Assembly (NCBI GenBank): GCA_018651725.1
Contig: JABIDK010000005.1
Location: 64,064 to 128,063, forward strand
DNA from: Candidatus Falkowbacteria bacterium
Lineage (GTDB): Bacteria > Patescibacteriota > Patescibacteriia > JAACEG01
Direction: 5' to 3'
Length of the DNA: 64,000 bases
Part shown: piece by piece, positions 1 through 36,464 of the stretch
Numbering within the stretch: the first letter of the stretch is position 1
Layout of the letters: the number at the start of each line of letters is the position of its first letter
Made by a program: the position numbers and the translations under genes
Notes under the pieces: generated by a model
Told to the model about the DNA's origin: nothing
The model's input: the letters and a program-made list of their open reading frames with translations, nothing else
Databases searched by the model: none

Positions 1-1190
1 TTGTCCTAGAAGGATACTACGCAAAAGATAAAAACAAAGTTTATCTGGCTAAACCAGTTTTGACCGGCAATATGTCTGCTAATCTTACTCCTGGGATTAT
101 AGAGGCCGCCGATCCGAATACTTTTAAAGTTCTGCCCTTTGATTATTCAAAAGACAAAAACAATGTTTATGTATTTGATCAAATAGTGGAGGGGGCTGAT
201 GTGGAGACTTTTGTTTCGTACAGCGGTGTAGCTAGAAAAGATCCAAAAATTAATGAAGGCGAAGGTAGATACAATGCAGAAGATAAAAATTATAAGTATT
301 TTCATGGCAATCGTGTCGGTGTAGCAAAATCCAACAACACTGAATTTATAAACGACTATTTTTCCAAAGACAACGATTACGCTTACTATAATTTAGAAAA
401 AATTGAAGGAAGCGACAGTTCTTTTTTTGAGGTAATTGAGGGTGGCAAATGGGTAAACGTATACGACAAAGGAAAATATGCCAAAGATAATATTAATTAT
501 TACTTTGAGAACAAAATCGTAAATGAAATTGATGGCAACACCTTCGAAATCTTAAGTACTAATTACGCAAAAGATGAATACAATGTGTATTTTAGTGAAA
601 AAATTCTAAAAAACGCAAACCCGCAAACATTCAGTGTTAAGTGCTTGATTCCAAGCACCACTAGAATAGATGGATGTGAATATGCGCACGATGATAACAA
701 TCTTTACTACAATGGTGAAGTGATTATTGGTTCAAACCCAAAATCTTTCGAAATAAAAAGAGAAAGTGTTAATGGAATAAATATTGATTCGAGAGATTTT
801 ATTAATCTTTATAATCAAGGAAAAGTTGTCGAAAAGAGAAATCTTGAAGATATTAACGGATTTATAAATGTTTCCATCACATTAAAGGATAGAGCGATTA
901 CACAATCTACTAAATATGTTTACGAATATGATGAATATGAAAATTATAAAAAAGAAATTGAAAATATAGGTGGTATTGGTACCCAATCTGCAATAACCAA
1001 AGGGATAAACGGAAATATTTATGGTGCAAATATTTATTCAAATATTCCGATTGACTATCTAATAAATTTCATAAAAAAAGATTGGATAAAATCAATTCGC
1101 AATACTTCAGATTTTGATATGAGCAACAAACTTAGACAACACAAGAACGCTATAGAAGAATCTAGAAAAATAATTAAAGAAATAAGCTAA
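1..1190 (+). CDS. DKNYY-repeat family protein, 5'-truncated by window edge
   Basis: The reading frame is open from nt 3 (VLEGYYAKDKNKVYLAKPV...) upstream of the tracked Met at 60. It carries repeated D-K-N-x-Y-Y/YxF motifs (DKNNVYVFDQ, KDNDYAYYNL, KDNINYYFEN, KDEYNVYFSE, DDNNLYYNGE) spaced about 30-40 aa apart, typical of the DKNYY repeat family. The stop codon is at 1188-1190. Confidence 0.6.
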   Translation, partial: VLEGYYAKDKNKVYLAKPVLTGNMSANLTPGIIEAADPNTFKVLPFDYSKDKNNVYVFDQIVEGADVETFVSYSGVARKDPKINEGEGRYNAEDKNYKYFHGNRVGVAKSNNTEFINDYFSKDNDYAYYNLEKIEGSDSSFFEVIEGGKWVNVYDKGKYAKDNINYYFENKIVNEIDGNTFEILSTNYAKDEYNVYFSEKILKNANPQTFSVKCLIPSTTRIDGCEYAHDDNNLYYNGEVIIGSNPKSFEIKRESVNGINIDSRDFINLYNQGKVVEKRNLEDINGFINVSITLKDRAITQSTKYVYEYDEYENYKKEIENIGGIGTQSAITKGINGNIYGANIYSNIPIDYLINFIKKDWIKSIRNTSDFDMSNKLRQHKNAIEESRKIIKEIS

Positions 1191-1620
1191 AAGGAGTTTT
1201 GGGGTAAAGGGAATTCACCCCTTTAATTCCCCTCTTCCCTTTACCCAAAACGAAAAACAAAATTAAATTCTTTTTAAAAGTGATTTGCATTCGCAAATCA
1301 AAGAAAAACATATACATCAGCTAACAACACGATATCCGGTTACGGCTCTTCCGAGAGCCTCCACCCAAATTTTCTTTCGCTCCGCTCCAGAAAACTTCGG
1401 ATATCGGTAACAGTTATACGAAATAAATTTTTTATCTATACTAGTATTTAAAATTCAATGCGTTGAACACAGCGAAAATTTGATTTTTATTTAATTAATA
1501 AGGGGTAATAAGGAATATTTTTTGTCTTTAAAAAATTCTGGTAACAGAAAAATAATATTTTAATAAGTATTAACTTTTTTTGAAATTAGCTTTAGCTATA
1601 TAAGAAAAAATAATAAAAAA
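1191..1620 (+). repeat. Intergenic repeat module M1: H1 hairpin plus conserved blocks
   Basis: It shares blocks with modules at 2752-3153, 3981-4575, 9964-10221 and 14979-15405. These are TACATCAGCTAACA..CGGTTACGGCT..GCCTCCaCCCAAATTTT (near-identical to M5), CTCCGCTCC, AAAACTTCgGATAtcGGTAACAGTTATACGAAATAAATTTTTT, and ATTAATTAATAAGGGGTAATAAGG. Confidence 0.7.
1196..1251 (+). repeat. Structured hairpin element H1, copy A. Stem GTTTTGGGGTAAAGGGAA / TTCCCTTTACCCAAAAC, 21-nt loop TTCACCCCTTTAATTCCCCTC.
   Basis: It starts 6 nt after the stop of the upstream CDS and is preceded by AAGGAG. The 5' arm is 18 nt and the 3' arm 17 nt, leaving one unpaired G in the 5' arm. The loop is identical in copies A, B and D; copy C differs at two positions. 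Confidence 0.8.
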
Positions 1621-2751
1621 ATGGAATCACTAGATAATTTCAAACAATACTCAAAAAAGGAGGCGCAAGAAAAAGGAAAAGAAATGCAGGAAAAAATTAA
1701 ATCTGGAGAAGCGAAAGACTTTAGAGAAGCAGAGCAATCTGTTGAAAAAGAGCAAAAATTTGATTTAACCATAGATCAGATCACATCTATGCAGAGCATA
1801 GAAGATCTTTTTTCTAAAAGTAAGGATGTGCATACTGAACAAAATACAAATTTTATAAAATCTCTGAAAGAGTATATTGATGACTCTTCATTGCCGCAAG
1901 ATTTAATTATTTTAATTATAGAAAAAAATATTTTAAATAATTCTAATATTACAACAGACTTTGAGTACTCTTCACCAGAATGGCTAAGTGCTATAGTTTC
2001 AAGATTAAATCCTGAGCAAAAGAAAGAGTTTATCAAAAAAAGAGTTAAACTTTCTTTGAGTGTTCCTGAGATGATTCCAAGAATGATTGAACTATATTCT
2101 GTAACAGTTGATGATTATCGAAATGAATTTTTAAATAATCTTTCATCACAAAAGTATGATGGTTTAATCAATTATAGTAAAGGATTGTCAAAAAGATATA
2201 AAGAAGTTGGAATATCCTGCTTTGATGACGCAAAAGACAGAGAAGCACGCTTACCATTTCCTTGTGATGAAAATATTTTACTAAGATTGTTCCCAGACTT
2301 TTTTAATAGTCAAGTTTCGAATTCGTTAAAAAAAATTAAAATAAAAAAAACTGCAGAAAAAAATAAAGACCTCATGGATTTTTATTTCGTAACTATGGGT
2401 GGGGGCGGAGCAAATATTTTATCTAGTAAAAAAGAGATGAATATTAAAAAGATTGATAAAACAATTGAGAGCTCTTTAAAAGAAATTAATAATATACTTA
2501 CATCAACTGGTGATATCACCAAACAAAGCGTTATAGATCAATTAACAAATCAAGCTTTTGATACTATGTTTAATAGTATGCTTGAGGGAAGAACGCTTAC
2601 TATAAATTATACTGATTCCCAGGTTAAAGCAATGAAGAATGTTATTTCTAACTTAAATACTATCCGCAATAAGTATGAACTATCAGAAATTAGACCTGAA
2701 GACATAAACAAATTAGTTGAATATTTAAAGATAAAAACTGATACCCCCTAA
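1621..2751 (+). CDS. Hypothetical Lys/Glu-rich protein (376 aa), no recognisable domain
   Basis: Long ORF between two repeat modules. It has no signal peptide or TM segment and I recognise no motifs. Confidence 0.5.
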   Translation: MESLDNFKQYSKKEAQEKGKEMQEKIKSGEAKDFREAEQSVEKEQKFDLTIDQITSMQSIEDLFSKSKDVHTEQNTNFIKSLKEYIDDSSLPQDLIILIIEKNILNNSNITTDFEYSSPEWLSAIVSRLNPEQKKEFIKKRVKLSLSVPEMIPRMIELYSVTVDDYRNEFLNNLSSQKYDGLINYSKGLSKRYKEVGISCFDDAKDREARLPFPCDENILLRLFPDFFNSQVSNSLKKIKIKKTAEKNKDLMDFYFVTMGGGGANILSSKKEMNIKKIDKTIESSLKEINNILTSTGDITKQSVIDQLTNQAFDTMFNSMLEGRTLTINYTDSQVKAMKNVISNLNTIRNKYELSEIRPEDINKLVEYLKIKTDTP

Positions 2752-3153
2752 AAATATAAGGAGTTTTGAAAAAATGGAATTCACCCCTTTAATTCCCCTC
2801 TTCCATTTTTTCAAAACAAAAAATCAAATTTTCTTTTCTAGTAGAAAAGAGTAATCGCAATTAAAACGAGATAAAAAATTTACATCGCACAACAAAGAAT
2901 ATCTGGTTCAAAATATTTAATTTTAAATTATAATAAGGATTTAAATATTACTCACCCAAATTTTATTTCGTTTCACTTAATAAAACTTCAGATATTCTTA
3001 AACGTTGTACGAAATAAATTTTTTCATTCTATTTTCTTAACAAGTATTTCCTTATAACCACGGCGAAAGTTTATTTTTTTATTAATTAAAAGGGGAAATA
3101 GGTTATTTTCTCCGCTTCGCTACGAAAATAAATTTATTAAATTAACAAAAACT
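2752..3153 (+). repeat. Intergenic repeat module M2
   Basis: Its blocks are H1, the small hairpin CTTTTCTAGTAGAAAAG, CACCCAAATTTT, AAAACTTCAGATATTCTTAAACGTTGTACGAAATAAATTTTTT, and TTATTAATTAAAAGGGGAAATAGGTTATTTTCTCCGCTTCGCTACGAAAATAAATTTATT. The last block is nearly identical to 10128-10195. Confidence 0.7.
2773..2827 (+). repeat. Structured hairpin element H1, copy B. Stem GTTTTGAAAAAATGGAA / TTCCATTTTTTCAAAAC, same 21-nt loop.
   Basis: The 17-bp stem is perfect and completely different in sequence from copy A, but fully compensatory. The loop TTCACCCCTTTAATTCCCCTC is identical. Confidence 0.8.
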
Positions 3154-3624
3154 ATGTCACAAATTGAAATTATTGAACACAAAAATCACAAATTCATGTT
3201 CTTGGATGATTATCTTTGGATGTGGGACACACCACAAGAAAAAGAGTTACAAGAAGATTTAGCCAAACAAGCATATGGGGATGTGTTAATCGCAGGATAC
3301 GGATTTGGTATTTTATCAAAATACGCCCTAGATAACAAAAATATAAAAACAGTCAACACTGTTGAAAAATATCAAATTGTTATTGATAAAATGAAAGAGT
3401 TTGGTCACATATATGGAGATATAACTATTAACGATTACTATGATTTGCCAGAAGAAAAAAAATATGATTGTATTATTGGCGATATATGGCCAGACATTGA
3501 CGCAAAATTTTTAGATGATTATATCAAATTTAAAAATAAATCTAATCAAATATTAAAAAAAGGCGGAAAATTATTGGCTTGGGGAGGTGATTACTACGAA
3601 TATTTGATTAATTCAAAAAAATAA
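3154..3624 (+). CDS. Short spermidine-synthase-like class I MTase-fold protein (156 aa)
   Basis: VLIAGYGFGILSKYAL..VNTVEKYQIVID resembles the aminopropyltransferase motif I (VL.IGGGDGG..E..VE.D..Vi). DCIIGD resembles the D-V-I-I-V-D segment. It sits immediately upstream of speH with a 2-nt gap. It is too short for a canonical SpeE. Confidence 0.45.
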   Translation: MSQIEIIEHKNHKFMFLDDYLWMWDTPQEKELQEDLAKQAYGDVLIAGYGFGILSKYALDNKNIKTVNTVEKYQIVIDKMKEFGHIYGDITINDYYDLPEEKKYDCIIGDIWPDIDAKFLDDYIKFKNKSNQILKKGGKLLAWGGDYYEYLINSKK

Positions 3625-3626
3625 TT

Positions 3627-3980
3627 ATGAAAAACGGAACACATTTATTAGTTGATATAAAAAATTGCAAAAAAATAAAAGAGTTGTCTGATACTAAAGT
3701 TATCACCTCTTTCCTTGTTAAACTAATCAAATTAGCAAAAATGAAAGCCATAACAGAGCCAAAGGTAATGTATTATGAACACGAAGATAAAATTGAAAGT
3801 GGTATTACCGGTTTTGTAATCATCGCGGATAGTCATGTGAGCATTCACACATATCCTTTAAAAAAATCATTTTACCTCGACCTATTCTCTTGTAAAAAAT
3901 TTAATGAAAAAGAAATAATTAAATACACAAATGAATTTTTTGGAGGCAAAAAAATAAAAAGCCAACTTATCAAAAGATAG
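3627..3980 (+). CDS. speH: S-adenosylmethionine decarboxylase proenzyme, pyruvoyl-dependent class 1b (SpeH/SpeD-like)
   Basis: G-HLLVD..C ... GITGFVIIADSHVSIHTYP ... YLDLFSCKKF matches the small AdoMetDC signature (G.TG.v.l.ESHisIHTwPE ... D.F.C), including the Ser of the self-cleavage site. Confidence 0.8.
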   Translation: MKNGTHLLVDIKNCKKIKELSDTKVITSFLVKLIKLAKMKAITEPKVMYYEHEDKIESGITGFVIIADSHVSIHTYPLKKSFYLDLFSCKKFNEKEIIKYTNEFFGGKKIKSQLIKR

Positions 3981-4038
3981 TATTAATTATACTTATAAAG
4001 TAGTTACTTTTTAAAATAACAAAAACTAAAAATAAGGA

Positions 4039-4093
4039 GTTTTGGGCAAAGAGCATTCACCCCTTCATTTCCCCTCTGCTCTTTGCCCAAAAC
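4039..4093 (+). repeat. Structured hairpin element H1, copy C. Stem GTTTTGGGCAAAGAGCA / TGCTCTTTGCCCAAAAC, loop TTCACCCCTTCATTTCCCCTC.
   Basis: The 17-bp stem is perfect with compensatory changes. The loop differs from the other copies at two positions. Confidence 0.8.
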
Positions 4094-4498
4094 AAAAAAA
4101 TTAAACTTTCTTTTCTTTCAGAAAAGATTTAAACTGTTAACAAAAAAATTTACTACGTACAACACGGTGTATCTGGTTACAGAAAATTTCAATATAAAAA
4201 CATCCTGTTACGCTATCGCTTCACAGGATTAATAATAAGGAATAAAATTTTCTTCCACGCAAATCCAAATCTCTTTTATATTAATTTAAAAATGTATCGA
4301 TTTGGACTTCAGATGACACCGAAACGTTATCTGAAATTTTTACACTGCCTTGATGAGTGCCTCTCAAGTAAACCTCTACTTTTTAACGGTGCCTCTTTCG
4401 TTTAGACGAGAAAAGAAAAAGAATTCAATTGCTTCACAACAAAATATAACATTGTCTAAACGGTTCACTTCGTTCTCCCAAATTTTTCTCTTACTTGG

Positions 4499-4511
4499 GG
4501 GGGTCGCCATT
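4499..4511. repeat. GC-rich 13-bp inverted repeat GGGGGTCGCCATT, left copy. Its partner is at 9089-9101.
   Basis: Perfect reverse complements bracket the ABC transporter operon. The right copy begins inside the ATPase stop codon. Confidence 0.7.
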
Positions 4512-4575
4512 TGAAAACATTTAAAAACAATTATATACTACTTAATATAATAATAACTAAAAGAGGTATAATACT

Positions 4576-5562
4576 ATGAAAAACACAATTTTTGCTCTAA
4601 CAATCATCGCAGTTTTGCTATTAGTTGGATGTACGCAAGTACAACAAGATAAAGAATTAAAAGATTTTAAATTAAGTGTAAACACTTGGGTTGGTTTTGG
4701 TCCTTTTTATTTAGCCGATGAACTTGGATATTTTGAAGATGAGGGATTAGATGTAGATATTATTGTCATGGAGGGAACAGCTGAAAGAAAATCCACCATG
4801 ATAACTAATAAGATTGATGCTTTAGGGGACACAGTTGATTTATTGGTTTTAGCAAGAGATGAGGATGTGCCTGAAGTTGCAGTTTTAGAAGTTGATCTTT
4901 CTGATGGTGCTGACGGTTTAATTGCTACAGAAGATATCCAATCATTAGCAGATCTTAAAGATAGAAAAGTTGCTGCTCAAAAGAATTTTGTTGGGGAATC
5001 ATTTTTGCTCTATCTACTAAAAAAGAATGGAATGTCAGTAGATGATGTAACAATTATTGACACAGAATCAGGAGCAGCAGGAGCGGCTTTTGTTGCTGGA
5101 CATGTTGATGCTGCTGTCACATGGGAACCTTGGTTAAGTAAAGCAAAAGAACGAGAGGGTGGCCATATAGTTATAGATAGCGCAGATGAGCCAGGAGTAA
5201 TTGTTGATATTCTAACGGTCAATGAAAATGTTCTTAAGAACAGACCTGACGAAGTAAAAGCTTTAATGAGAGCATGGTTTAAAGCCATTGATTACTGGGA
5301 AAAGAATCCTGATGAAGCAAATGTAATCATGACAAAACACTATGATATGCCAGTAGAAGAATTTGCAGATATAATTTCTGGTGTAAAATGGCCAAGTTAT
5401 CAAGAGAATCTAGCTTACTTTGGAACATCAAATAATCCTGGAATGATTTACGATGTTGCCGATACTTTTGGAGAGGTCTTTTTAGAAACAGGCTCTATCA
5501 GTGTAAAACCGGACTTAAATAAAGCGATTGACGAATCATTGCTTGTTAATCTCTATAAATAA
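4576..5562 (+). CDS. ABC transporter substrate-binding lipoprotein, NMT1/SsuA (NitT/TauT) family
   Basis: Signal peptide with lipobox LLVGC. The VTWEPW motif and overall periplasmic-binding-protein character match sulfonate/nitrate/thiamine-precursor SBPs. Confidence 0.7.
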   Translation: MKNTIFALTIIAVLLLVGCTQVQQDKELKDFKLSVNTWVGFGPFYLADELGYFEDEGLDVDIIVMEGTAERKSTMITNKIDALGDTVDLLVLARDEDVPEVAVLEVDLSDGADGLIATEDIQSLADLKDRKVAAQKNFVGESFLLYLLKKNGMSVDDVTIIDTESGAAGAAFVAGHVDAAVTWEPWLSKAKEREGGHIVIDSADEPGVIVDILTVNENVLKNRPDEVKALMRAWFKAIDYWEKNPDEANVIMTKHYDMPVEEFADIISGVKWPSYQENLAYFGTSNNPGMIYDVADTFGEVFLETGSISVKPDLNKAIDESLLVNLYK

Positions 5563-5574
5563 AAGAGGTAAACT

Positions 5575-6639
5575 ATGAACTTAATAGTAAAAGACATTGA
5601 TAGAGTAAAAAATACTTTAGAGAAGCTTCACAAAAGTAAGAAGCTTTTCTTTGCTTTATTTTTTGATGAAAGACCAGTACACAAAAAATATTTCTCTGAT
5701 GACCAAATCAGTATTCTAAAAGCGACTAATCTAATCTCAATAAAACAAAACTATATTTCTGCAAATTACAGAGTGATAAAGTTACAAAATAACAACAATT
5801 CAGCATTTATTGTAACTGATAAAGTTTCTTACAAAAAATTAGATCAAGTAATGCCCCTTCATCCTGAGAACCAATTTATAGTTGATGATATGAAAATTAA
5901 AGCTGACGATGAAGTTTTAGAAATTGGTGTTGGCAGTGGAGTTAATGTAATTTTTTCAATTATGTCCGGAGCTAAAAAAGTTACTGCTTTAGACATTAAC
6001 AAAAGAACTTTTGAATTTACAAAATTTAATGCTGCATTAAATCTCTCAAAACAAGACCAAAATAAAATTAATTTAATCCTTAATAAAAAATCCAGTTTAG
6101 AAAATATCTTTGATTCTGTGAAAAACAAGAAGTTTGATTATATCGTAACTAACCCTCCTTTTGAACCAACACCACCAAAATCAAAATATTTATTGAATTC
6201 TGCAAGTGGTATTTACGGTTTAGATGTAATAGAAGCTATCCTAAAAAAGACCAAACAGCATTTAAAAAACGCAGGATATTTACAGATGGTAACTTTTTCT
6301 CCTGGAAATCAAAAAGAACCTTTTATGCTTAAAGAAATGCTAAATAAATATTTAGGGGCAGGTATTATACATCTTAATAAAATAGGGATGAAATATGTTG
6401 ATTTTACTAAAAGATTTATTGATTTAGGTTATGATAAAGAAAAAGTAGACCTAATGAACTTACAGGCAAAAAAAGATAAAGTAACACATTTATATCTAAG
6501 CATGGTTCAGTATAATAATCAAATGGAAGATGTTAAAATTAAAACTTCAACTAAAATTTACAAGAATTGGGACATTCCTATTTATTCTGATGTGCCAATG
6601 GGGTTTAAACCTAAAAAATCAAAACTAAAGTTAGATTAA
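5575..6639 (+). CDS. Class I SAM-dependent methyltransferase with NPPF motif (HemK/PrmC-like small MTase domain)
   Basis: Motif I is EIGVGSGVNV. Motif IV is YIVTNPPFEP, the N6-adenine/N5-glutamine type. It lies inside the ABC transporter operon, 12 nt after the SBP and 1 nt before the permease. Confidence 0.55.
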   Translation: MNLIVKDIDRVKNTLEKLHKSKKLFFALFFDERPVHKKYFSDDQISILKATNLISIKQNYISANYRVIKLQNNNNSAFIVTDKVSYKKLDQVMPLHPENQFIVDDMKIKADDEVLEIGVGSGVNVIFSIMSGAKKVTALDINKRTFEFTKFNAALNLSKQDQNKINLILNKKSSLENIFDSVKNKKFDYIVTNPPFEPTPPKSKYLLNSASGIYGLDVIEAILKKTKQHLKNAGYLQMVTFSPGNQKEPFMLKEMLNKYLGAGIIHLNKIGMKYVDFTKRFIDLGYDKEKVDLMNLQAKKDKVTHLYLSMVQYNNQMEDVKIKTSTKIYKNWDIPIYSDVPMGFKPKKSKLKLD

Positions 6640-6640
6640 C

Positions 6641-7408
6641 ATGAAAAATAGATTAAAAACATTATTATGGGGATTATCTTCGTTTATTGTAATTATAATT
6701 ATCTGGGGTCTCTTTACTTATACAAGAATAATCAAACCTTTTTTTCTGCCAACGCCGACTGAAGTTTTAATTGCATTATTTGATTTATTTACCAAGTATA
6801 ATTTTATTGAAGATGTTTCTATTAGTGTTTTCAGGATTTTAACAGGCTTCATTATTGCCGTTATTATGGCAATCCCTGTTGGTGTCTCCATAGGGTTAAG
6901 CAAAAAATTTCAATCATTTATAGAACCAATCATTGATTTTATTCGTTATACTCCAATTCCTGCATTTATTCCTCTTCTAATCCTTTGGTTTGGTATTGGA
7001 GAATTAGAAAAAATCATCGTCATCGTATTAGCAGTATTTTTCCAATTAGTATTAATGGTGTCTAATTCAATTTCTCATGTGCCAAAAGACATTATAGAAT
7101 TCGCTAAAACCTTAGGAGTAAATAAAAAAGAACTTATTACTAAAGTTATTTATCAACATGCTAAACCTAGAATTTTTGATGATCTAAGAGTTTCAATGGG
7201 TTGGGCATGGGCTGGTTTAATGATTGCAGAAATTGTCGGAGCAACTTCGGGTATTGGTTTTGTTATTATTCAATCTCAAAGATTATTAAGAACAGAAAAT
7301 GTTATTTCCGCAATTATAATTGTCGGCCTGTTAGGGTTAATAACTGATTTTGTATTTAAAATTGCCTATAAGAAACTTTATCCTTGGGCAGAAAAAGAAA
7401 CACAATGA
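6641..7408 (+). CDS. ABC transporter permease (SsuC/TauC-type inner membrane component)
   Basis: About six TM helices. The binding-protein-dependent transport permease signature region is present. Confidence 0.75.
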   Translation: MKNRLKTLLWGLSSFIVIIIIWGLFTYTRIIKPFFLPTPTEVLIALFDLFTKYNFIEDVSISVFRILTGFIIAVIMAIPVGVSIGLSKKFQSFIEPIIDFIRYTPIPAFIPLLILWFGIGELEKIIVIVLAVFFQLVLMVSNSISHVPKDIIEFAKTLGVNKKELITKVIYQHAKPRIFDDLRVSMGWAWAGLMIAEIVGATSGIGFVIIQSQRLLRTENVISAIIIVGLLGLITDFVFKIAYKKLYPWAEKETQ

Positions 7409-9090
7409 AACCAAAACTTAAAATCAATAAAGTATCTAAGATTTTTGTAGATGATTCTGGAAAGAAAATAGAAGCTATCAAAGATATTTCAGTTGATGTT
7501 GCAGATAAAGAATTTGTTGCTATTGTTGGCCCATCTGGTTGTGGAAAAACAACTCTATTAAAAACTGTAGCAGGACTTCTTGAACCAACAAATGGTGAAA
7601 TCTACTTAAATAATAAAATAATCAATCAACCACAAAAAGAAATGGGCCTAGTTTTTCAAAACCCAGCTTCTTTTTCTTGGCTAACTGTTTTAGAAAATGT
7701 TGAATTCGGATTAAAATTACAGAATATCCCTGAAAGAAAAAGAAGAGAGATTGCAGGCCATTTTATAGACTTAGTTGGTTTATCTAGTTTTGAAAAATCA
7801 TATATTAAAAATCTTTCAGGAGGAATGAAGCAACGAGTTGCCATAGCAACAGTTTTAGCTAACAACCCAGATATTCTATTAATGGATGAGCCTTTTTCTG
7901 CTTTAGATGCCCAAACAAGAGCTTTAATGCAGGAATTAATTCTTACAATTTGGGAAGAAACAAAAAAGACAGTCCTTTTTGTCACTCATGATATTGAAGA
8001 AGCAATTTTTTTAGCAGATAGGGTCTATGTGATGAGTGCAAAGCCAGGAGAGATTAAAGATGTTATTAATATTAATCTACCAAGAGATAGAACTCCTGAA
8101 ATTAAATTATCTGATGATTTTCTTAGAATAAAAAAACATATCTCATATATCATCAGGGGAGAAGCAATTAAAGCAGCCCATGTAAATGTAGAATCACTTA
8201 GACCAAAAGCATTAAGAGTTGGAACTCATACTTGGCCAGGTAACAGCCCTTTCTATTTAGCAAGAGAAGTAGGTATATACAAAAAGAAAAAATTAGATGT
8301 AGAATTGTTAAGCCTTGAAAAAGAAGAAGACAGGATTAAAGCTCTACAAAATGGAGAAGTAGATATTCTTAATTTAACAGCTGATGGCGTAGTCTTAGCA
8401 AAAGAGAGAGGTTTAGATTTACAGATAATTGCTTGCCTTAACAAATCAATTGGTGGAGATGCAATTTTAACCAAGAAAGAGATCAAGAAAGTTGAAGAGT
8501 TAAGAGATAAAACTATTGCCATTGAAAGAGGATGGATTAGTCATTTCTTTTTATTGTATGTACTAAAAAAACATGGAATGGATGAAAAAAATGTTAAAAT
8601 AGTCCACATGAGGGGAAGTGATATAGGCGCAGCTTTAATTGCAAATAAAGTTGATGCTGCTGTTCTTTGGGAACCCTGGCTATCTCAAGCGCAGAAACTT
8701 TCAAGTACAAAAACTCTTATCTCCACTAAAGAAGAACCCGTAATAATTGATGTTTTAGCAACTACTAAAGATATTGCCAAGAAGAAAAATATTGAAATTA
8801 AGAAATTTGTCAATTCATGGTTTGAATCATTGAATTATGCTGATAGAAATAAAGAAAGAGCACACACTCTAATGGCCATCCCTCTCGGAATCTCTACAAA
8901 AGAACTCAGAGAATTATTAAAGCAACTTCAGTTTATTGACATAAACTATAATAAAAAACTATTAGGGACCAAAACCAACCCTGGAACTCTGATAAATTTA
9001 ATAGATAAAATATCTGATGTTTGGTTATACAACAAACAAATTAAAAATAAAGTGAATAGTAAAAACTTAATTAATTCTGATTTTATTTAA
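7405..9090 (+). CDS. ABC transporter ATP-binding protein fused to a C-terminal NMT1/SsuA-like substrate-binding domain
   Basis: Walker A GPSGCGKTT, ABC signature LSGGMKQRVAIA, Walker B LLMDEPFSALD and H-loop FVTHD are present. The C-terminal half carries WEPW and aligns with the SBP at 4576. The start is placed at the ATG overlapping the permease TGA (ATGA coupling); the track start at 7384 is also possible. Confidence 0.75.
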   Translation: MKPKLKINKVSKIFVDDSGKKIEAIKDISVDVADKEFVAIVGPSGCGKTTLLKTVAGLLEPTNGEIYLNNKIINQPQKEMGLVFQNPASFSWLTVLENVEFGLKLQNIPERKRREIAGHFIDLVGLSSFEKSYIKNLSGGMKQRVAIATVLANNPDILLMDEPFSALDAQTRALMQELILTIWEETKKTVLFVTHDIEEAIFLADRVYVMSAKPGEIKDVININLPRDRTPEIKLSDDFLRIKKHISYIIRGEAIKAAHVNVESLRPKALRVGTHTWPGNSPFYLAREVGIYKKKKLDVELLSLEKEEDRIKALQNGEVDILNLTADGVVLAKERGLDLQIIACLNKSIGGDAILTKKEIKKVEELRDKTIAIERGWISHFFLLYVLKKHGMDEKNVKIVHMRGSDIGAALIANKVDAAVLWEPWLSQAQKLSSTKTLISTKEEPVIIDVLATTKDIAKKKNIEIKKFVNSWFESLNYADRNKERAHTLMAIPLGISTKELRELLKQLQFIDINYNKKLLGTKTNPGTLINLIDKISDVWLYNKQIKNKVNSKNLINSDFI

Positions 9091-9101
9091 TGGCGACCCC
9101 C
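9089..9101. repeat. GC-rich 13-bp inverted repeat AATGGCGACCCCC, right copy
   Basis: Reverse complement of 4499-4511. Confidence 0.7.
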
Positions 9102-9414
9102 TATTCTAGTCTGCTACGCAGAATTTATATTAAGAAAAGTAAGAGAAAAACTACAGAGGCACCTAAAGTAGAGGCAGTGTAAAAACTCTCTTCGTTCCCT
9201 TCGGTCACTACGAGCCACGCTACGCTCTCACTTCGTTCGGGTCAGATAACAGGGCTTATGCGGAAAATGGCTCGGCTCGCCATTTTCCCAAATTGCTCCG
9301 CTTCGCTACGCAACTTCGCATAAGCCCGATGTTATATAAAATGGCCTAAATCGGCCTCATCATATAACAAGTTGTATCTAGCTACGCCAGTAAAATAAAA
9401 ATTAACTCTTTAAT
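9091..9414 (+). repeat. Intergenic repeat module M4a (variant without H1)
   Basis: It contains the nested inverted repeats GGGCTTATGCG...CGCATAAGCCC (11 bp) and AAAATGGC...GCCATTTT. It also has CTCCGCTTCGCTACG, CCCAAATT and CACTTCGTTC blocks shared with the other modules. Confidence 0.6.
9386..9414. repeat. 29-bp perfect inverted repeat, left copy (GCCAGTAAAATAAAAATTAACTCTTTAAT), ending at the ATG of the enclosed ORF
   Basis: Exact reverse complement of 9959-9987. Confidence 0.9.
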
Positions 9415-9963
9415 ATGTTTTTAAAAATTTATCTTTACATTTTATTATCTTTGTTAATACTTTTTGTTTTACATTTTTTCTTTAAATGGCAAATTCGTAA
9501 AATTATGATGCGCTCAGTTGCCAATAAGCTTGGATTGAAATATATCCCCAAAACAACCAAACCTGCTAGCAAGGAAGAGCTGCAAGAGGTGCCAGACATA
9601 CTCACAGATTCAAGTGAAAAAATTAGAAATCTAATTGAGGGTATGTACAATGGAAAAAGTATAATAATATATGAAAGACAAGTCGTCTCAGGCGCCGGTC
9701 CATACACACAACAAGCCACAACAAAAATGTTAAATATAATTATTGACGACAATAAAATTCTTGTTATTAATTGCAGCGAAATCTTGTTTCCTCTGCCTGG
9801 CAAAATAATTAAATTCATTAACGATTATATTGAAAATGGCCAGCTGCCAAAAACTAAAAAAATGAACAGCGCTTTACTGTTGGTTATTTTGATATTCACA
9901 ATCTTGCCCACAATTATAATACTTGGAATAATAGCTTTAAAATTGGATGAAGCGTTATATTAA
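9415..9963 (+). CDS. Small membrane protein (182 aa), N- and C-terminal TM helices, unknown function
   Basis: The ORF fills exactly the space between the two 29-bp inverted repeats. It has hydrophobic N- and C-termini. Confidence 0.5.
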   Translation: MFLKIYLYILLSLLILFVLHFFFKWQIRKIMMRSVANKLGLKYIPKTTKPASKEELQEVPDILTDSSEKIRNLIEGMYNGKSIIIYERQVVSGAGPYTQQATTKMLNIIIDDNKILVINCSEILFPLPGKIIKFINDYIENGQLPKTKKMNSALLLVILIFTILPTIIILGIIALKLDEALY

Positions 9964-9987
9964 AGAGTTAATTTTTATTTTACTGGC
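9959..9987. repeat. 29-bp perfect inverted repeat, right copy (ATTAAAGAGTTAATTTTTATTTTACTGGC), beginning inside the stop codon
   Basis: Exact reverse complement of 9386-9414. Confidence 0.9.
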
Positions 9988-10221
9988 TTCGCCCAAATTT
10001 TCAAAATGAATATTAATTACAATAAGAAATTTTGAAAACTTTAGATACAACTAAACGTTAGCTGAAATATTCCTTTTCTTTTTCGGGCTATCGCCCTAAT
10101 TGTTTTAAAAAATTTTCAAATTTCTTTTTTATTAATTAAAGAGGGGAAATAAGGTGTTTTCTCCGCTCCGCTCCGAAAACGATTTATTTATAGGGGAAAA
10201 CGAATACAATACAAAACATCA
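9964..10221 (+). repeat. Intergenic repeat module M4b
   Basis: Its blocks are CGCCCAAATTTTC, AAACTTTAGATAcaactaAACGTTAgctGAAATA, and TTATTAATTAAAGAGGGGAAATAAGGTGTTTTCTCCGCTCCGCTCCGAAAACGATTTATTTA. The last block is about 85 percent identical to the M2 3' block. Confidence 0.65.
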
Positions 10222-11307
10222 ATGTCAAAAATTATGGCAAAATCTTCAAATTCAAATTTTCATAGAGCGGCCAAAGCAAAAAATGATGAGTTTTATACTC
10301 AGCTTATTGATATCGAAAAAGAACTGAAACATTACAAAGACCAATTTCGTAACAAAGTAGTCCACTGTAATTGCGATGATCCATTTGAGAGCAACTTTTT
10401 TAAATATTTTGCCGCCAATTTCAAAACGCTCGAATTAAAAAGACTTATTGCAACTAGCTATAAGCCGTCTCCGATCGCAAATACACAACTTAGTTTATTC
10501 GGTGATGATAAAACACTCAAGCCCAAAAAGGGTCGCCCAAAAGTGAATGCAAACAAGTTTATCATCAACGATGTTGGCGATCTGGATGGCGACGGCGCTT
10601 TTGATTTGAAAGACGTCGCGGAACAGCTAAAGGTAAACAAAAACAACGAGTGGTTGCCGCTTGAAGGTGAAGGAGATTTTAGAAGTCCAGAAAGCATAGA
10701 GTTGCTTAAGCAGGCGGATATTGTGGTAACCAACCCGCCGTTTTCGCTCTTTCGGGAATATGTAAATCAGCTAGTTGAGTATAAGAAGCAGTTCTTGATT
10801 ATCGGCAATGACAATGCGAGAACATACGTGAATATTTTTGAACTGATACAAAAAAATAAAATTTGGGCAGGATATGGAAAGGTAAAGGAATTTATACAGC
10901 CCGACGGATCAATAAAAGGATTTGGTAATGTCGGATGGTATACGAATCTTGATGTAGCGAAGCGACATGAATCCTTAACGCTCTATAAAAAATATTCCCC
11001 AAAAGAATATCCTAAGTACGCAAATTATGATGCAATAGAAGTTAGCAAGGTTACTGATATACCTATTGATTATGACGGCGAGATGGGTGTACCGATTTCA
11101 TTTCTAGATAAATACAACCCGGAACAATTTAAAATTGTTGGGTCAAGTAGTAATCTATCAGAACCCATCAAAACAAAAGATGGTTTAGTCTACCGATATA
11201 AAGACCGTAACGGATATATGCGTCAAGCGGCAAATGAACGTTTTGCTCTTCCCGACGGTGACACTTGGCGACGCATTTATGACAGAATTGTAATTAGAAA
11301 AAAATAA
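10222..11307 (+). CDS. N6-adenine DNA methyltransferase, EcoRI-methylase-like family
   Basis: N-terminal AKAKNDEFYTQ (DEFYT signature). Catalytic motif DIVVTNPPFS (NPPF). Confidence 0.65.
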   Translation: MSKIMAKSSNSNFHRAAKAKNDEFYTQLIDIEKELKHYKDQFRNKVVHCNCDDPFESNFFKYFAANFKTLELKRLIATSYKPSPIANTQLSLFGDDKTLKPKKGRPKVNANKFIINDVGDLDGDGAFDLKDVAEQLKVNKNNEWLPLEGEGDFRSPESIELLKQADIVVTNPPFSLFREYVNQLVEYKKQFLIIGNDNARTYVNIFELIQKNKIWAGYGKVKEFIQPDGSIKGFGNVGWYTNLDVAKRHESLTLYKKYSPKEYPKYANYDAIEVSKVTDIPIDYDGEMGVPISFLDKYNPEQFKIVGSSSNLSEPIKTKDGLVYRYKDRNGYMRQAANERFALPDGDTWRRIYDRIVIRKK

Positions 11308-11308
11308 T

Positions 11309-12439
11309 ATGAAAATTGAACTAAACAACATCAAAGTACGTGAAGTATTCAACGGATACAAAGATAGTGACGAGGAAGGCGTTGTCGCATATGACGGTAA
11401 TCTTGATATTCGTCCAAAATACCAGCGCGAATTCGTGTATAAGCCAGAACAACGCAATCAAGTTATTAAAACTATTCTGCGTGGCTATCCAGACAGCGAC
11501 GCATATTTCCCACTTAATACAATGTACTGGCTTAAGACTGATGATAATCATTTTGAGATTATTGATGGTCAACAGCGTACGCTCTCAATCTGTCAATATA
11601 TAAATGGTGATTTCAGTATTGATGAGAAATACTTTCATAGCTTGAACAAAACGGAACAGGAGTATATTTTGGAATATCCCTTGCAAGTGTATATCTGCAC
11701 AGGAAGCGATAAAGAGCGGCTTGAATGGTTTGAAGTAATCAACACTGCTGGCGAAGTTTTAACACCTCAAGAACTACGCAACGCAAACTATACTGGCGAG
11801 TGGCTCACCGACGCAAAGCGATGGTTTTCTAAAAGTGGCGCACCTGCGTATCAAATTGGTCAAGATTATGTCAAAGGCTCACCTATCCGCCAAGAATTTT
11901 TGGAAAAGGTATTAAAATGGATATCTGCACGCGACTACGGTGAAGAAAATCCTGCTGAGTACATGTCTAAACATCAGCATGATAAAAATGCCAACGAATT
12001 GTGGGAGTACTTTCAGGGCGTAATTGAATGGGTGCAAGAAACATTCCCGAATTACCGCAAAGAAATGGCAAGTGTAAACTGGGGCGAGTTATACAATCAA
12101 TTCAAAGACAAAAAACTAAACGCAGAAAAACTTGAGGAAGAAATCTCAAAATTGATGCAAGACGAAGATGTCAGCAGCAAGCCTGGTATTTATCCTTATG
12201 CACTCACGAGACAAGAAAAATACCTATCTATCCGCGCATTTAATGACAAAATGAAGCGCGAGGCGTACGAGAAGCAAAAAGGAATTTGCCCGCTATGTAA
12301 AGCCAAAGATAAAAAACGCTTAGATATTTCTGACATGGAAGCCGACCATATCACCCCTTGGCATGAAGGAGGCAAAACTGTTTCAGAAAATTGCCAAATG
12401 CTGTGCAAACAATGCAATAGAACTAAATCTGGAAAATAA
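11309..12439 (+). CDS. DUF262 (ParB-like, DGQQR motif) domain fused to a C-terminal HNH endonuclease domain
   Basis: N-terminal FEIIDGQQRTLSI. C-terminal CPLC...EADHITPWHEGGKTVSENCQMLCKQCNRTKS, the canonical HNH zinc-finger nuclease motif. There is a 1-nt gap after the MTase gene. Confidence 0.7.
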   Translation: MKIELNNIKVREVFNGYKDSDEEGVVAYDGNLDIRPKYQREFVYKPEQRNQVIKTILRGYPDSDAYFPLNTMYWLKTDDNHFEIIDGQQRTLSICQYINGDFSIDEKYFHSLNKTEQEYILEYPLQVYICTGSDKERLEWFEVINTAGEVLTPQELRNANYTGEWLTDAKRWFSKSGAPAYQIGQDYVKGSPIRQEFLEKVLKWISARDYGEENPAEYMSKHQHDKNANELWEYFQGVIEWVQETFPNYRKEMASVNWGELYNQFKDKKLNAEKLEEEISKLMQDEDVSSKPGIYPYALTRQEKYLSIRAFNDKMKREAYEKQKGICPLCKAKDKKRLDISDMEADHITPWHEGGKTVSENCQMLCKQCNRTKSGK

Positions 12440-12605
12440 AAATTAAAGACAATTATGAATAGTTTGCTTGCAGAAATAAATAATGAAATCACGCCTGAAC
12501 AGAAAAAAATTTCTGAGGCTATTGATATTAAAAAATCAGAAGAAGAGATAATTTCCGATTTAATAGAAAATGATATTGTTTCTTTTGACCTTAAGGAAAA
12601 AACGG

Positions 12606-14978
12606 ATGATCAAAAAACTTAAAACAATCAATAATATTTTTTCCTATTCCTTTTTCGAGTGGGATACCATTAACCCTGTTAAGGGGGTTAACCCCAATGA
12701 TCCGATAGATATTTTTAAAAAGAATAATATTCTTTTTGCAGAAAATGGGAATGGAAAAACAAATCTGATTAATCTTCTCAAGGTGTTGAATGGTGTTGAT
12801 TCAATTAAACTTGAAAAACACTGGGATTACCCCACGGAAAATCAAAATGTTGTTTTGGAGCTTGATAATGAACTATCCTTTAATTCTGGAAATTGGAGCG
12901 AAATAAATGGATCGTTACAAGATAAGTTTGTTATCTTTGATAAGTATTTTACGGAAAAATATGTTCATTCCGTGGGATTAGATCATCACAATACAGCACA
13001 GAGAAAACAGGAAAGAGGCAAGCACATTATTTACCTGGGGAATTTTACTGAATATAATCAAGAAATAAATAAAATTAATAGACTTAAAAATGAAGTAAGC
13101 GAAAAAAACAGTGCATTTTGGACTGCTGAACAAGATAAAATAAGCAACATACTTCCTGAGTGGCTAGACATTACCAAGATTGATAGTGAGAAAAATATTA
13201 TAAAAAACATTGACCCCTTAAGTCTTTCTAGCAAGCAACAGACATTGGAAAATCAAAAAAAGAATCTTGAAAAAGTCATAAACGCCATTAAAAATCAATC
13301 CGAAATAGAGAAACTAAAAAACTTAGATGATATAAAAACGGTTTTTGATTTTAAAATTAAAGAATTTGATAAGAACGGTAAAAAAACGGTTTATCAACTT
13401 GACCCCGCCAAATTATTTAATTTTACCGTTTCCAAGGGCGTTAAGCAGACTTTATCGAAAATAAGCAATAAAAAGTCTTTTATCAAAACAGGATTGAACT
13501 TGGTTGACGATACTACGGAAGATTGCCCATTCTGCGAACAGAAAATTAAAAATGGCGAACTTATTCAAATTGTAAAAGATTACCAAAATATTTTTGATCA
13601 AACATTTTTAGATGAGGAAAGTAAAGTAAAAAACCGCTTACAGAAATATAAGACTGTTTTATCAAGTTTGAAAGATCTTCAGTCAATATCTTCTAATGTT
13701 ACAAGTTTACAGGAAGCTCAAAAATATGTAGGTGTTGATATTTCAATCCCAAATTGTTCTTTGGGCGAGGAAGACAAAAAAATAATTGAGTTAGAAATTC
13801 AACGCGTTATTGATAAAGAAAAAAATATTTTAAATCCGGTAACTGGTAGTACATTTGAACAAATCAAGAATATGGTTGATAGGGCAAATGCTTTAAAAAA
13901 GAGCTACAACAACGCTGTAGATAAAATAAACGAAAAAATAAATGAGCTTAAAAAGGTTGCAAGCGAAGGCAAGCTTGATGAAAGAAAAACAGAGATTGAA
14001 AATACAATCAGAGAGTTAGAAAAAAGCATCCTATATATTAATCATCAGAAAGATTTTTTGCGATATTTTAATGCCAAAAATCATAATAACCAAAATAAAA
14101 AAGTTATTGAGAATCTTGAAGCAATCTATCAAAAACTTAAAGAAAAAATAGTTGAAAAATTTAACAAGTTCGCAAATGAATATTTTGAGTTGATAAAGCA
14201 TTATGTAAAAATAATAAGCCCATCAATGGAAATATTTGATGTTTTAGGGAAAGGCACATACTCAAGAACCGGTCGTGAGCCTGCGCAATGCGGTTTTGAA
14301 GTTCAATACAACAAAAAGGATTGTACAAATGATCTTAGCGAAGGCGAAAGACAAGTTATCGCGCTTGCATTTTTCTTTGCTCAATTAAAAAAAGAGATAA
14401 GCAAAGATAAAATAATAATTTTAGATGACCCTATTACATCGTTTGACGCTGGAAAAAGAAAATCTACTGCAGAAGTAATTAAATCCGAGACGCAGAAATT
14501 CGATCAGTTATTCGTGTTTACTTGCGACCCTCTTTTTCGTGAGTTTTGCTTGAAAGAAATTCCAAATAGAAATTTTTACTATATTTTTATTACAAAAAAA
14601 TCTTCATCAATACATTATGTCCCCAAAAATCGAGAAACAATATATCAATCATTTGAGGAAGATTTTAAGAACATCGGAAATATCAATGGTTCAAATGAAA
14701 ATGTTGTTATTTACGGACAAAAGTTAAGGTTTTGTTTGGAAACGAAAATCAAGGAGGACTATTTTGGTTATTCACAAGATAATCTTTCAAATATGATTGA
14801 GCAGGTGGTAGAAAAAGGTAATCAAAAATTCAAAAACCTTATCGACAATAAGGAAACAATTTTGAATTTATATAATTATTGCAATACTGGCGGATTGGCA
14901 CATTACCCAAAAGACGGTTCAACAAGTTGGAACGAATTAAACAGCAAAGTACAAGAGTATTTAAATTTAAATTTATAA
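12606..14978 (+). CDS. PrrC/RloC-like ABC-type ATPase (AAA_13-like) with coiled-coil CxxC zinc-hook and an uncharacterised C-terminal domain
   Basis: Walker A LFAENGNGKTNLINLL. Long Lys/Glu-rich coiled coil containing EDCPFCEQ (CxxC). ABC signature LSEGERQVIALAFF, Walker B IIILDDPITSFD. The C-terminal about 180 aa contains LRFCLE (R-x3-E) followed by a distal His. The start is placed at the MIKKLKTINN Met with upstream AAGGAAAA; the track start at 12570 would add 12 aa. Confidence 0.6.
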   Translation: MIKKLKTINNIFSYSFFEWDTINPVKGVNPNDPIDIFKKNNILFAENGNGKTNLINLLKVLNGVDSIKLEKHWDYPTENQNVVLELDNELSFNSGNWSEINGSLQDKFVIFDKYFTEKYVHSVGLDHHNTAQRKQERGKHIIYLGNFTEYNQEINKINRLKNEVSEKNSAFWTAEQDKISNILPEWLDITKIDSEKNIIKNIDPLSLSSKQQTLENQKKNLEKVINAIKNQSEIEKLKNLDDIKTVFDFKIKEFDKNGKKTVYQLDPAKLFNFTVSKGVKQTLSKISNKKSFIKTGLNLVDDTTEDCPFCEQKIKNGELIQIVKDYQNIFDQTFLDEESKVKNRLQKYKTVLSSLKDLQSISSNVTSLQEAQKYVGVDISIPNCSLGEEDKKIIELEIQRVIDKEKNILNPVTGSTFEQIKNMVDRANALKKSYNNAVDKINEKINELKKVASEGKLDERKTEIENTIRELEKSILYINHQKDFLRYFNAKNHNNQNKKVIENLEAIYQKLKEKIVEKFNKFANEYFELIKHYVKIISPSMEIFDVLGKGTYSRTGREPAQCGFEVQYNKKDCTNDLSEGERQVIALAFFFAQLKKEISKDKIIILDDPITSFDAGKRKSTAEVIKSETQKFDQLFVFTCDPLFREFCLKEIPNRNFYYIFITKKSSSIHYVPKNRETIYQSFEEDFKNIGNINGSNENVVIYGQKLRFCLETKIKEDYFGYSQDNLSNMIEQVVEKGNQKFKNLIDNKETILNLYNYCNTGGLAHYPKDGSTSWNELNSKVQEYLNLNL

Positions 14979-15405
14979 TAATGAGTTTAAGGGCAAGGGG
15001 AATTCACCCCTTTAATTCCCCTCTTCCCCTTGCCCTTAAACAGAAAAAGAAATTTGAAAATTTTTTAAAACAAGTTTTCTTTCAGAAAACAAAAGAAAAG
15101 GAATACATCAGCTAACAGCGTATAACAGGCTACGGCTTCCCTATCGGTAAGCCTCCGCCCAAATTTTAAATTATTTCTTTGTTGTTGCTCCGCAAAATTA
15201 TAACAAAGAAATAATTTAAAACTTCTGTTATACGCATATGTTGTCCAAAATGCCTTCGCTCCACTGCGTCATTTCGGACAACAGTGGTTATCTGAAATTT
15301 CCTTCCGCCAAAACCCCTTCGGGGATTGGCTTCAGAAAACTTCAGATAACCGCGAGGCGTTATACAAAATAATAAAATTAATCTTATTAACTTAACATAA
15401 AACAT
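14979..15405 (+). repeat. Intergenic repeat module M5
   Basis: Its blocks are H1, the small hairpin GTTTTCTTTCAGAAAAC (a compensatory C/G swap relative to M2 and M3), TACATCAGCTAACAGCG...GGCTACGGCTTCC...GCCTCCGCCCAAATTTT, the arms GGTTATCTGAAATTTCC ... GAAAACTTCAGATAACC around CCCCTTCGGGG (a UUCG loop), and CGCTCCACTGCG. Confidence 0.7.
14985..15041 (+). repeat. Structured hairpin element H1, copy D. Stem GTTTAAGGGCAAGGGGAA / TTCCCCTTGCCCTTAAAC, same 21-nt loop.
   Basis: The 18-bp stem is perfect and again different but compensatory. The loop is identical to copies A and B. Confidence 0.8.
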
Positions 15406-15939: not shown

Positions 15940-16000
15940 TTTATAATTAAATCAATTGAAGTAATCAAATAAACAAGTAATGATGAAGTTAAAAACGAAA

Positions 16001-16034
16001 AAAGCCGATGGCTAATAAATCATCGGCTTTTGGT
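16001..16034. terminator. Bidirectional rho-independent terminator between convergent genes
   Basis: AAAGCCGATG-gctaataaat-CATCGGCTTT followed by TTGG. A run of As precedes it on the other strand. Confidence 0.6.
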
Positions 16035-36451: not shown

Positions 36452-36464
36452 TAATATCAATATT

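Follow-up and report, generated by a model that had tools for sequence, protein, structure and literature searches.

Four hairpins in a 64,000-nucleotide (nt) stretch of Candidatus Falkowbacteria DNA (contig JABIDK010000005.1, positions 64,064–128,063; the whole stretch is called the window here) form the gene-proximal module of the right non-coding end of cassettes in an integron-like array. The array consists of a divergent recombinase of the Xer/IntI type, an attI-like GTTAGGC core, and co-oriented cassettes that are each ended by a folded attC-like site. The hairpins, abbreviated HP and labelled A–D in the window, point to a variant, so far poorly described, of a known system and not to a new kind of signal, although HP itself is a new accessory element. 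This integron-like system is found mainly in Patescibacteria and also on contigs assigned to DPANN archaea and Bacteroidota. As to what HP does within the cassette array, we give roughly even chances to an accessory structural or recognition role at the DNA level, apart from the crossover site.

Hairpins in the window

All four copies lie on the + strand and each closes a cassette. Copy A (1196–1251) closes cassette 2, which carries a DKNYY gene; copy B (2763–2817) closes cassette 3, with a 376-amino-acid (aa) open reading frame (ORF, 1621–2751); copy C (4039–4093) closes cassette 4, with a 156-aa ORF and an AdoMet decarboxylase; and copy D (14985–15041) closes cassette 7, with an EcoRI-like methylase, a GmrSD/HNH protein, and an AAA_13 protein. 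The original prediction, made from the letters of this DNA, described four such hairpins with a common 21-nt loop and perfectly complementary stems of 17–18 base pairs (bp), and the four were recovered as described. Copies A, B, and D carry the loop TTCACCCCTTTAATTCCCCTC without change, and C departs from it at two positions (four matches in the window against 0.00 expected from 100 shuffles), and all stem pairs are Watson–Crick, with a single bulged G in copy A. Fold z-scores of A, B, C, and D were −1.8, −4.2, −6.0, and −6.3, and the predicted stability of HP ranges from −18 to −31 kcal/mol.

One part of that description did not hold. Each hairpin had been placed 2–7 nt past a stop codon; true distances from ORF stop to hairpin are 5, 11, 58, and 6 nt for A–D, and the apparent stop 3 nt upstream of copies B and C is a TAA inside the conserved ATAAGGAG flank. 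The view that HP is not a canonical terminator was borne out, as its loop is long and a T-tract follows none of the four copies. Terminator criteria ask for a loop of 3–8 nt, HP has a loop of 16–21 nt and an A-rich tract on its 3′ side, and a terminator scan reported 0 of the 4 copies. Canonical hairpins with T-tracts were found elsewhere in the window, including at the end of the array. At Rfam 15 gathering thresholds, tRNA was the sole family passing in the window and HP matched none, and a permissive Rfam search of positions 1–16000 gave miRNA and snoRNA matches at chance level only. A small ORF or leader peptide in or after HP, or at the L2 hairpin described below, was considered and rejected: reading frames are not kept and the loops carry insertions and deletions.

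Folded sites and the crossover point

The four intergenic regions that contain HP are homologous over 300–480 nt and share one order: HP, a 75-nt A-tract-rich module termed X, and a multi-helix element. This last element is the attC-like site. Its layout is R″..AAC–P1–P2–P3–P1′–GTT..R′ over 96–185 nt. From 5′ to 3′ it consists of R″ (CATCAGCTAAC), a 1–2 nt spacer, the 5′ strand of P1 (11 bp), GGY, the P2 hairpin, RCC, and CAAATT; P3, also a hairpin, comes next, and then AACWTC, the second (3′) strand of P1, a 4-nt spacer, and R′ (GTTRNNYGAAAT). HP is held at a constant spacing of 70–76 nt from R″. RNAalifold predicted 25 pairs in the attC-like site with compensatory changes in 20 of them, including GGT/ACC alternating with GGC/GCC. 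Measured by the criterion for attC (an imperfect palindrome of 57–141 nt with RYYYAAC/GTTRRRY, R and L boxes, and a variable centre), the 96–185 nt sites have invariant AAC/GTT, heptamers that are often one base off (AGCTAAC/GTTAGCT), and covarying helices. No extrahelical L-box bases, which determine strand choice in attC, were found in an alignment of 20 sequences, where P1 is fully paired and the only asymmetry is in the spacer, 1–2 against 4 nt.

The attC-like sites in the window, all on the + strand, fit this layout. That of cassette 2 (1315–1424) has R″ CATCAGCTAAC, P1 CGATATCCG/CGGATATCG, two inner hairpins, and R′ GTTATACGAAAT, with the crossover G at 1413. The sites of cassette 3 (2883–3015; crossover G 3004) and cassette 4 (4153–4337; R″ CTACGTACAAC, R′ GTTATCTGAAAT, crossover G 4326) follow. 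Cassette 5, an ABC-transporter operon, ends in a site (9242–9342) that has neither HP nor X upstream; its R″ TCAGATAAC is the reverse complement of its own cassette start TTATCTGA at 4327. In the site of cassette 7 (15106–15251; R′ GTTGTCCAAAAT, crossover G 15240), R″ CATCAGCTAAC is likewise the reverse complement of the bases that open this cassette at 10057. Directly behind it lies an ORF-less mini-cassette of 119 nt (15241–15359; 15241–15370 with all of R′) with an attC-like site of its own (R″ TCGGACAAC at 15274–15282, R′ GTTATACAAAAT at 15359–15370).

Two observations place the crossover. Blocks conserved between loci start exactly at the G of GTTAGCTG, and the DNA to the left of that point is unrelated. 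R″ agrees with the beginning of its own cassette, 1–6 kb upstream, at 6/6 positions in window cassettes 1, 2, 4, 5, and 7 and at 4/6 in cassette 3; among public loci it fits the own-cassette start better in 15 instances and the adjacent R′ better in two, by a crude detector of attC-like sites that has both false positives and misses. That R″ is complementary to the start of its own cassette and not to the adjacent R′ indicates circular permutation by a G|TT crossover, as in integron cassettes. Taken together, block boundaries and own-start matches put the crossover at G|TTRNNYGAAAT, 150–290 nt past the 3′ end of HP in the window. Cassette 3 (2883–2893 versus 1413–1420) is the sole window cassette with a mismatch, R″ CGCACAAC against start GTTATACG; both mismatched positions read C·A on the top strand and would read G·T on the bottom, a hint that it is the bottom strand that folds.

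A recombination site was among the functions proposed for HP in the original prediction. The biology was right, in that HP belongs to a cassette array beside a tyrosine recombinase, but HP is not the crossover site, because cassette boundaries fall at the attC-like site. Under a strict definition of that site, HP occurs within 170 nt at 52 of 99 and is absent at the other 47; with about half of the sites devoid of it, HP is accessory. At one public locus (L204, 2216–2310), P1 of an attC-like site is interrupted by a MITE-like (miniature inverted-repeat transposable element) insertion of ~100 nt; its ends AGGCTGTCTAAAAACTC/GAGTTTTTAGACAGCCT are inverted, and ACTGC appears to be duplicated.

Complementary ends and recurrent modules

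Within each cassette, the non-coding DNA at the left end is a long inverted repeat of that at the right end. When each right end was folded with every left end under DNA energy parameters, the own-cassette left end gave the most inter-arm pairs in six of seven window cassettes. The own end gave 51, 42, 33, 65, 39, and 53 pairs and the next cassette 13, 33, 10, 14, 36, and 10. Pairing between own ends extends to unrelated end sequences, as in cassette 5, where TGGCGACCCCC just past the stop codon pairs with GGGGGGGTCGCCA upstream of the start. Since own ends are complementary, in a circular cassette they lie on either side of the attC-like core, where they can pair into a single long rod.

Module X and its inverted counterpart both occur in cassette 7. 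At the right end (15042–15116, + strand), A-tract-rich X reads GAAAAAGAAATTTGAAAATTTTTTAAAAC, a small variable hairpin, and AAAAGAAAAGGAATACATCAGCTAAC; diverged equivalents lie at 1252–1325, 2818–2893, and 4094–4163. The reverse complement of X (10057–10130, + strand) forms the left end of the same cassette, begins exactly at the G of GTTAGCTGAAAT, and lies directly 5′ of the methylase, GmrSD, and AAA_13 genes that end at hairpin D. Next to it, at 10141–10180 on the + strand, is a left-end counterpart of HP, GAGGGGAAATAAGGTG, which is complementary to the HP loop and lacks flanking stems, and then, within the same interval, the L2 hairpin, GTTTTC-TCCGCTCCGCTCC-GAAAAC. This arrangement is repeated elsewhere: the left cassette end holds the loop-like sequence in reverse complement without flanking arms, and the unit of reverse-complemented X, GAGGGGAAATAAGGTG, L2 hairpin, one to four ORFs, HP, and X recurs in 46 distinct units of 1–8 kb. 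HP–X blocks that are 96% identical were found behind unrelated ORFs. A promoter in the X modules was considered and rejected, as counts from a sigma-70 scan equal those of shuffles.

A second motif with a variable stem and a conserved loop, (T)CCGCT(C/A)CGCTCC, is common to the L2 hairpin and to P3 of the attC-like site. It occurs at 10156–10180, 1370–1400, and 15186–15200 in the window and at many other loci.

The original prediction described HP as a post-stop hairpin. Its start does lie 0–14 nt past a stop codon in most of 45 loci, and a Shine–Dalgarno-like AAGGAG/AAGGTG lies just 5′ of HP. This post-stop placement is, however, not specific to HP, as all types of 3′ module abut the stop codon. 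At locus L015 an isochorismatase-like ORF is reversed and HP keeps its cassette orientation. These two facts identify the post-stop position as a property of cassette architecture.

Recombinase and array organization

The array spans positions 1–15990 of the window (+ strand), starts ~1.6 kb upstream at a GTTAGGCGAAAT core that fits the attI consensus GTTRRRY, and ends past a leucine-rich repeat (LRR) gene at an ordinary terminator (~15985–16030). It holds about nine cassettes after the GTTAGGC core site. Cargo ORFs are co-oriented and functionally unrelated, and include restriction–modification, GmrSD, Fic, S24, NUDIX, and transporter genes.

A recombinase co-occurring with HP had been suggested as a check, and one was found: a tyrosine recombinase of ~270 aa is the most recurrent protein near HP loci. 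The window itself encodes no such recombinase. In public assemblies of the same contig the upstream order is smpB, a 278-aa recombinase on the minus strand, GTTAGGCGAAAT, ORF293, and the DKNYY gene, the 3′ part of which opens the window. The recombinase start codon is ~80 nt from the first core site and 127 nt before the first cassette ORF. In this upstream stretch, numbered as locus L244, GTTAGGCGAAAT lies at 3131–3142 between the recombinase and the first ORF, and the divergent-recombinase layout recurs at L004, L013, L046, L055, L093, L103, and L148. Among the genome loci listed, the conserved sequence nearest to each of the eight recombinase genes is GTT(A/G)NN(C/T)GAAAT (GTTRNNYGAAAT). 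At L244 (1658–3142, upstream of the window) the array and recombinase directly adjoin smpB, with the genes for IF3, L35, and L20 beyond.

The best family matches of the recombinase are the integron integrase TIGR02249, at 188–220 bits in two stretches (cutoff 265), and archaeal XerA. Alignment with VchIntIA (2a3v) pairs query residues 15–186 with IntI 8–182 and 202–278 with IntI 241–317, leaving ~43 IntI residues absent; alignment with XerA structures (4a8e, 5hxy) runs end to end as one piece. Judged from these alignments, the missing ~43 residues correspond to the IntI-specific additional domain around patch III.

Repeats elsewhere in the window (34510–34677 and 39179–41083) comprise a coding tandem repeat with a 6/12/18-nt period (AACACT/AATACA units) and 0.9-kb internal repeats of an 1808-aa ORF (36354–41780).

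The hairpin family beyond the window

HP is widespread and no unique local duplication: more than 100 relatives were found in public genomes and metagenomes, and their stems covary strongly. A scan of one genome per species with the query CACCCCTTNANTTCCCCTC returned at least 120 loci (L001–L120). Among the matches listed, ~45 copies share the anatomy seen in the window (ATAAGG(A/T)G, covarying stem, loop, stem, A-rich tract), and these are mostly in metagenome-assembled genomes (MAGs) of Patescibacteria, with a few on contigs labelled Woesearchaeota, Altiarchaeum, and Gammaproteobacteria, and one on a Polaribacter chromosome. Typical units of HP and cassette outside Patescibacteria include those at L040 (OY729423.1, 6655–6727; the Polaribacter chromosome, a chromosome-level Bacteroidota assembly), in a Woesearchaeota MAG (L006), and in an Altiarchaeum MAG (L062) whose left-end module is 95% identical to that of the window. 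Units on non-Patescibacteria contigs reflect either horizontal spread or mis-binning.

Stem covariation, proposed from four copies, is upheld in 45. Paired cells amount to 86.7% against 65.5% in shuffles, with none of 500 shuffles reaching the observed value; both sides change at 16 of 17 stem pairs, and slid-register controls on the same copies gave 40–55% pairing. Cells that are not Watson–Crick include 15 G·T and 21 A·C among 762, so wobble pairs are not in excess.

The loop had been called invariant, a claim that survives for its C-tracts and fails in its strict form. Because the genome sample fixed the loop by construction, a second sample was drawn from metagenomes via the module downstream of HP. 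In this loop-independent sample the loop follows TTCACCCC-N(2–7)-CCCCTC, with the 21-nt loop found 23 times, a 17-nt CCCCTAACCCC form 19 times, and several others. The middle of the loop varies and the ends are kept across samples, which identifies the two C-tracts as its conserved part. Covarying stems together with fixed loop C-tracts support the proposal that selection acts on the stem plus a specific loop.

About 75 further loci of L001–L120 have the form CACCCC..CCCCTC-loop-GAGGGG..GGGGTG. They are ordinary two-helix repeats, which we treated as unrelated; they probably represent unrelated C-rich repeat families and were set aside because a 17-base pattern should match ~70 times by chance in 596 Gb. 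These repeats carry the same 19-mer as their 5′ half, CACCCC-TTNAN-TTCCCCTC-loop-GAGGGGA-n-GGGGTG, are often multi-copy within a genome, and reside in cyanobacteria (L022, L047, and L052 in Okeania), Bacteroidota, Anaerolineae, and others (further loci L019, L031, L035, and L078). A phage origin of HP was also rejected, as viral contigs gave only four matches, by loop pattern alone. Mimicry of an anti-Shine–Dalgarno sequence was also noted as a conceivable reading of the loop.

Some loci hold tandem HP–HP pairs 66 nt apart (L034, 230–367; L081, 4480–4618; L112, L056, L055, L086, and L030). The first HP of each pair is always one imperfect-stem variant, TGTTTTCGG(T/G)CGGGGCAA-loop-TTGCCCCTCCCTCAAAC.

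At four loci an IS110-family element sits inside the HP loop (L204, 931–2140; L129, ~1–1395; L173, ~1–830; L235, ~990–1816). The L204 element encodes Pfam domains DEDD_Tnp_IS110 and Transposase_20. The elements at L204 and L129 are 84% identical and join directly after TTCACCCC in loops of two different types, and those at L173 and L235 form a second lineage with the junction within CCCCTC. From these fixed insertion points, the HP loop appears to be a specific IS110 target.

Role of the hairpin

If HP acts at the DNA level, the complementary ends offer a setting. In an excised single-stranded or circular cassette, the ends on either side of the attC-like core would pair into one rod, and HP, folding on itself, would branch off at the foot of the right arm, immediately past the stop codon. 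There it would display two C-tracts, CACCCC and CCCCTC, that are complementary to a G-rich sequence, GAGGGGAA..GGTG, in the corresponding place on the left arm. HP might then delimit or clamp the fold, with loop-to-strand pairing closing the rod and excluding coding DNA from it, or it might be a pad on which the recombinase or an accessory protein lands. We lean toward a DNA-level role because G·T excess is absent from the stems, X and the loop-like sequence recur inverted at the left end, the cassette with the reversed ORF keeps HP in cassette orientation, spacing from HP to R″ is constant, and IS110-family insertions in the loop are precise.

Several observations weigh against this interpretation. 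HP cannot be essential for recombination, given the 47 of 99 attC-like sites that lack it. It sometimes stands between two ORFs with neither X nor an attC-like site (L003), and sometimes in tandem (L034, L081, L112, and L056). Complementarity between the loop and the left arm covers just 8–10 nt plus gaps, and covariation of loop type with left-arm type is weak, ~8/13 versus 5/18 by our own count. The same cassette order was found in ~23 contigs that come from many samples, and no polymorphism for cassette presence or absence was seen among those ~23 contigs carrying window proteins; identical order means that a sign of current mobility is absent. Each step from fold to function is one that we infer.

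Beyond the role of HP alone, the array might belong to an IntI-independent gene-capture lineage with a Xer/XerA-type recombinase, fully paired sites, and rod-forming cassette DNA, in which HP is a loop-display element (a clamp, a pad for an accessory protein, or a means of synapsis between C-tracts and G-tracts). We advance this broader proposal tentatively and hold it to be possible but doubtful.

The main rival is that HP acts in RNA as a 3′-end element, either as an mRNA stem-loop that stops or stabilizes the transcript or as a barrier or processing mark that insulates cassette expression. HP is always on the coding strand, starts close behind stop codons in most loci, folds into a very stable hairpin, and has a Shine–Dalgarno-like sequence just upstream, all of which would suit such a role. 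It nevertheless lacks a U-tract and has a loop of 16–21 nt, in a host that possesses ordinary hairpin-plus-T-tract terminators, one of them at the array end. G·U pairs are not in excess over A·C, protection from exonucleases needs no conserved loop, every kind of 3′ module abuts the stop codon so that position is not particular to HP, and HP orientation follows the cassette where the ORF is reversed. We therefore regard an RNA function as unlikely, though deserving of serious attention. A selfish or neutral palindrome resembling repetitive extragenic palindromic (REP) sequences or MITEs, which colonized cassette 3′ ends and spread along without a role in the cassette, would account for the optional presence of HP (52 of 99 attC-like sites), for tandem copies and copies outside the X context, and for targeting by the IS110 family, as in REP elements. 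Covarying stems and fixed loop C-tracts over very divergent copies imply purifying selection on structure plus loop, HP has a fixed place and orientation in the cassette end, and no HUH/RAYT-type gene recurs among 512 ORFs of 48 loci; we consider this origin improbable.

It is very improbable that the recombinase crosses over at HP itself, which would make HP an unusual attC. In favour of this reading, HP is a folded palindrome with GTT at its start and AAC at its end, it follows cassette ORFs at their 3′ end next to a tyrosine recombinase, and 96%-identical HP–X blocks stand behind unrelated ORFs. Yet the crossover maps to the G|TT motif 150–290 nt beyond it, the order GTTTT…AAAAC is the inverse of R″…R′, and cassettes that lack HP have normal boundaries. 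Variable stems with a conserved loop are the pattern of rolling-circle origins and single-strand origins, and HP, which is strand-specific, matches this pattern; it could thus be a single-strand initiation signal, either a second-strand priming site of the excised cassette or a HUH nick site in the loop. A Rep or HUH gene does not recur near HP, however, the loop middle is variable in length, and half of the cassettes have no HP, which leaves this the least credible of the readings and a slim prospect.

Relation to known systems

The array resembles integrons, especially sedentary chromosomal integrons with uniform repeats such as the Vibrio VCRs, in having a divergent tyrosine recombinase beside the array and a GTTAGGC core at its start. 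Co-oriented unrelated ORFs are each followed by a folded imperfect palindrome with ..AAC and GTT.. half-sites, crossover bears the G|TT signature, some cassettes have no ORF, and repeats are more similar within than between arrays. Unlike integron integrases, the recombinase here is without the IntI-specific domain and aligns end to end with XerA, and the P1 (L-box) helix is without extrahelical bases, with an asymmetric spacer of 1–2 versus 4 nt. The absence of that domain and the absence of those bases go together, which fits a Xer-type enzyme reading a fully paired folded site. A conserved junction CCRCCCAWATT, inverted-repeat ends of 50–250 nt on both sides of the ORFs, and HP, which has no counterpart in described integrons, further distinguish these cassettes.

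The pdif/Xer modules of Acinetobacter plasmids also combine a Xer-type recombinase with modules bounded by sites in alternating inverted orientation and with toxin/antitoxin and defence-type cargo. The site there is a 28-bp duplex like dif, in contrast to the 96–185 nt folded site with covarying helices here, and the present array has an integron-type crossover signature and a recombinase gene beside it. A duplex dif-like site of ~28 bp (two 11-bp arms, 6–8 bp spacer) was not seen when X, the core, and the attI region were inspected, although a folded R-box plus P1 would mimic one and no formal search was made. REP sequences and bacterial interspersed mosaic elements (BIMEs) are like HP in being post-stop palindromes with many copies per genome and targets of the IS110/IS1111 family. 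REPs keep the stem, with a GTAG-type head, and leave the loop free, whereas HP keeps the loop and leaves the stem free; HP is, moreover, confined to the cassette array, and RAYT was not found among the 512 ORFs. The IS1111-attC group, IS110-family elements that target integron recombination sites, shares a fixed insertion point in a cassette-associated hairpin with the elements at L204/L129 and L173/L235, but their target here is the HP loop and not the attC-like site.

We found nothing specific in the literature on integrons or cassette arrays in Patescibacteria or the candidate phyla radiation (CPR). A study of archaeal integrons requires canonical IntI, and integron finders with that requirement would score arrays of this kind at best as orphan attC clusters, throughout the vast radiation of Patescibacteria.

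What defines integrons is IntI with its extra domain, which reads the extrahelical bases of attC. The array described here has the full boundary signature of an integron, yet its recombinase is without the IntI domain and its sites are without extrahelical bases. Structure-specific capture of cassettes would then be independent of the IntI innovation, provided that the array is active. Inverted-repeat ends and a hairpin with a conserved loop are relevant to the formation of cassettes and to their folding, both open questions, and the HP loop is a natural, precisely used target of IS110-family recombinases.

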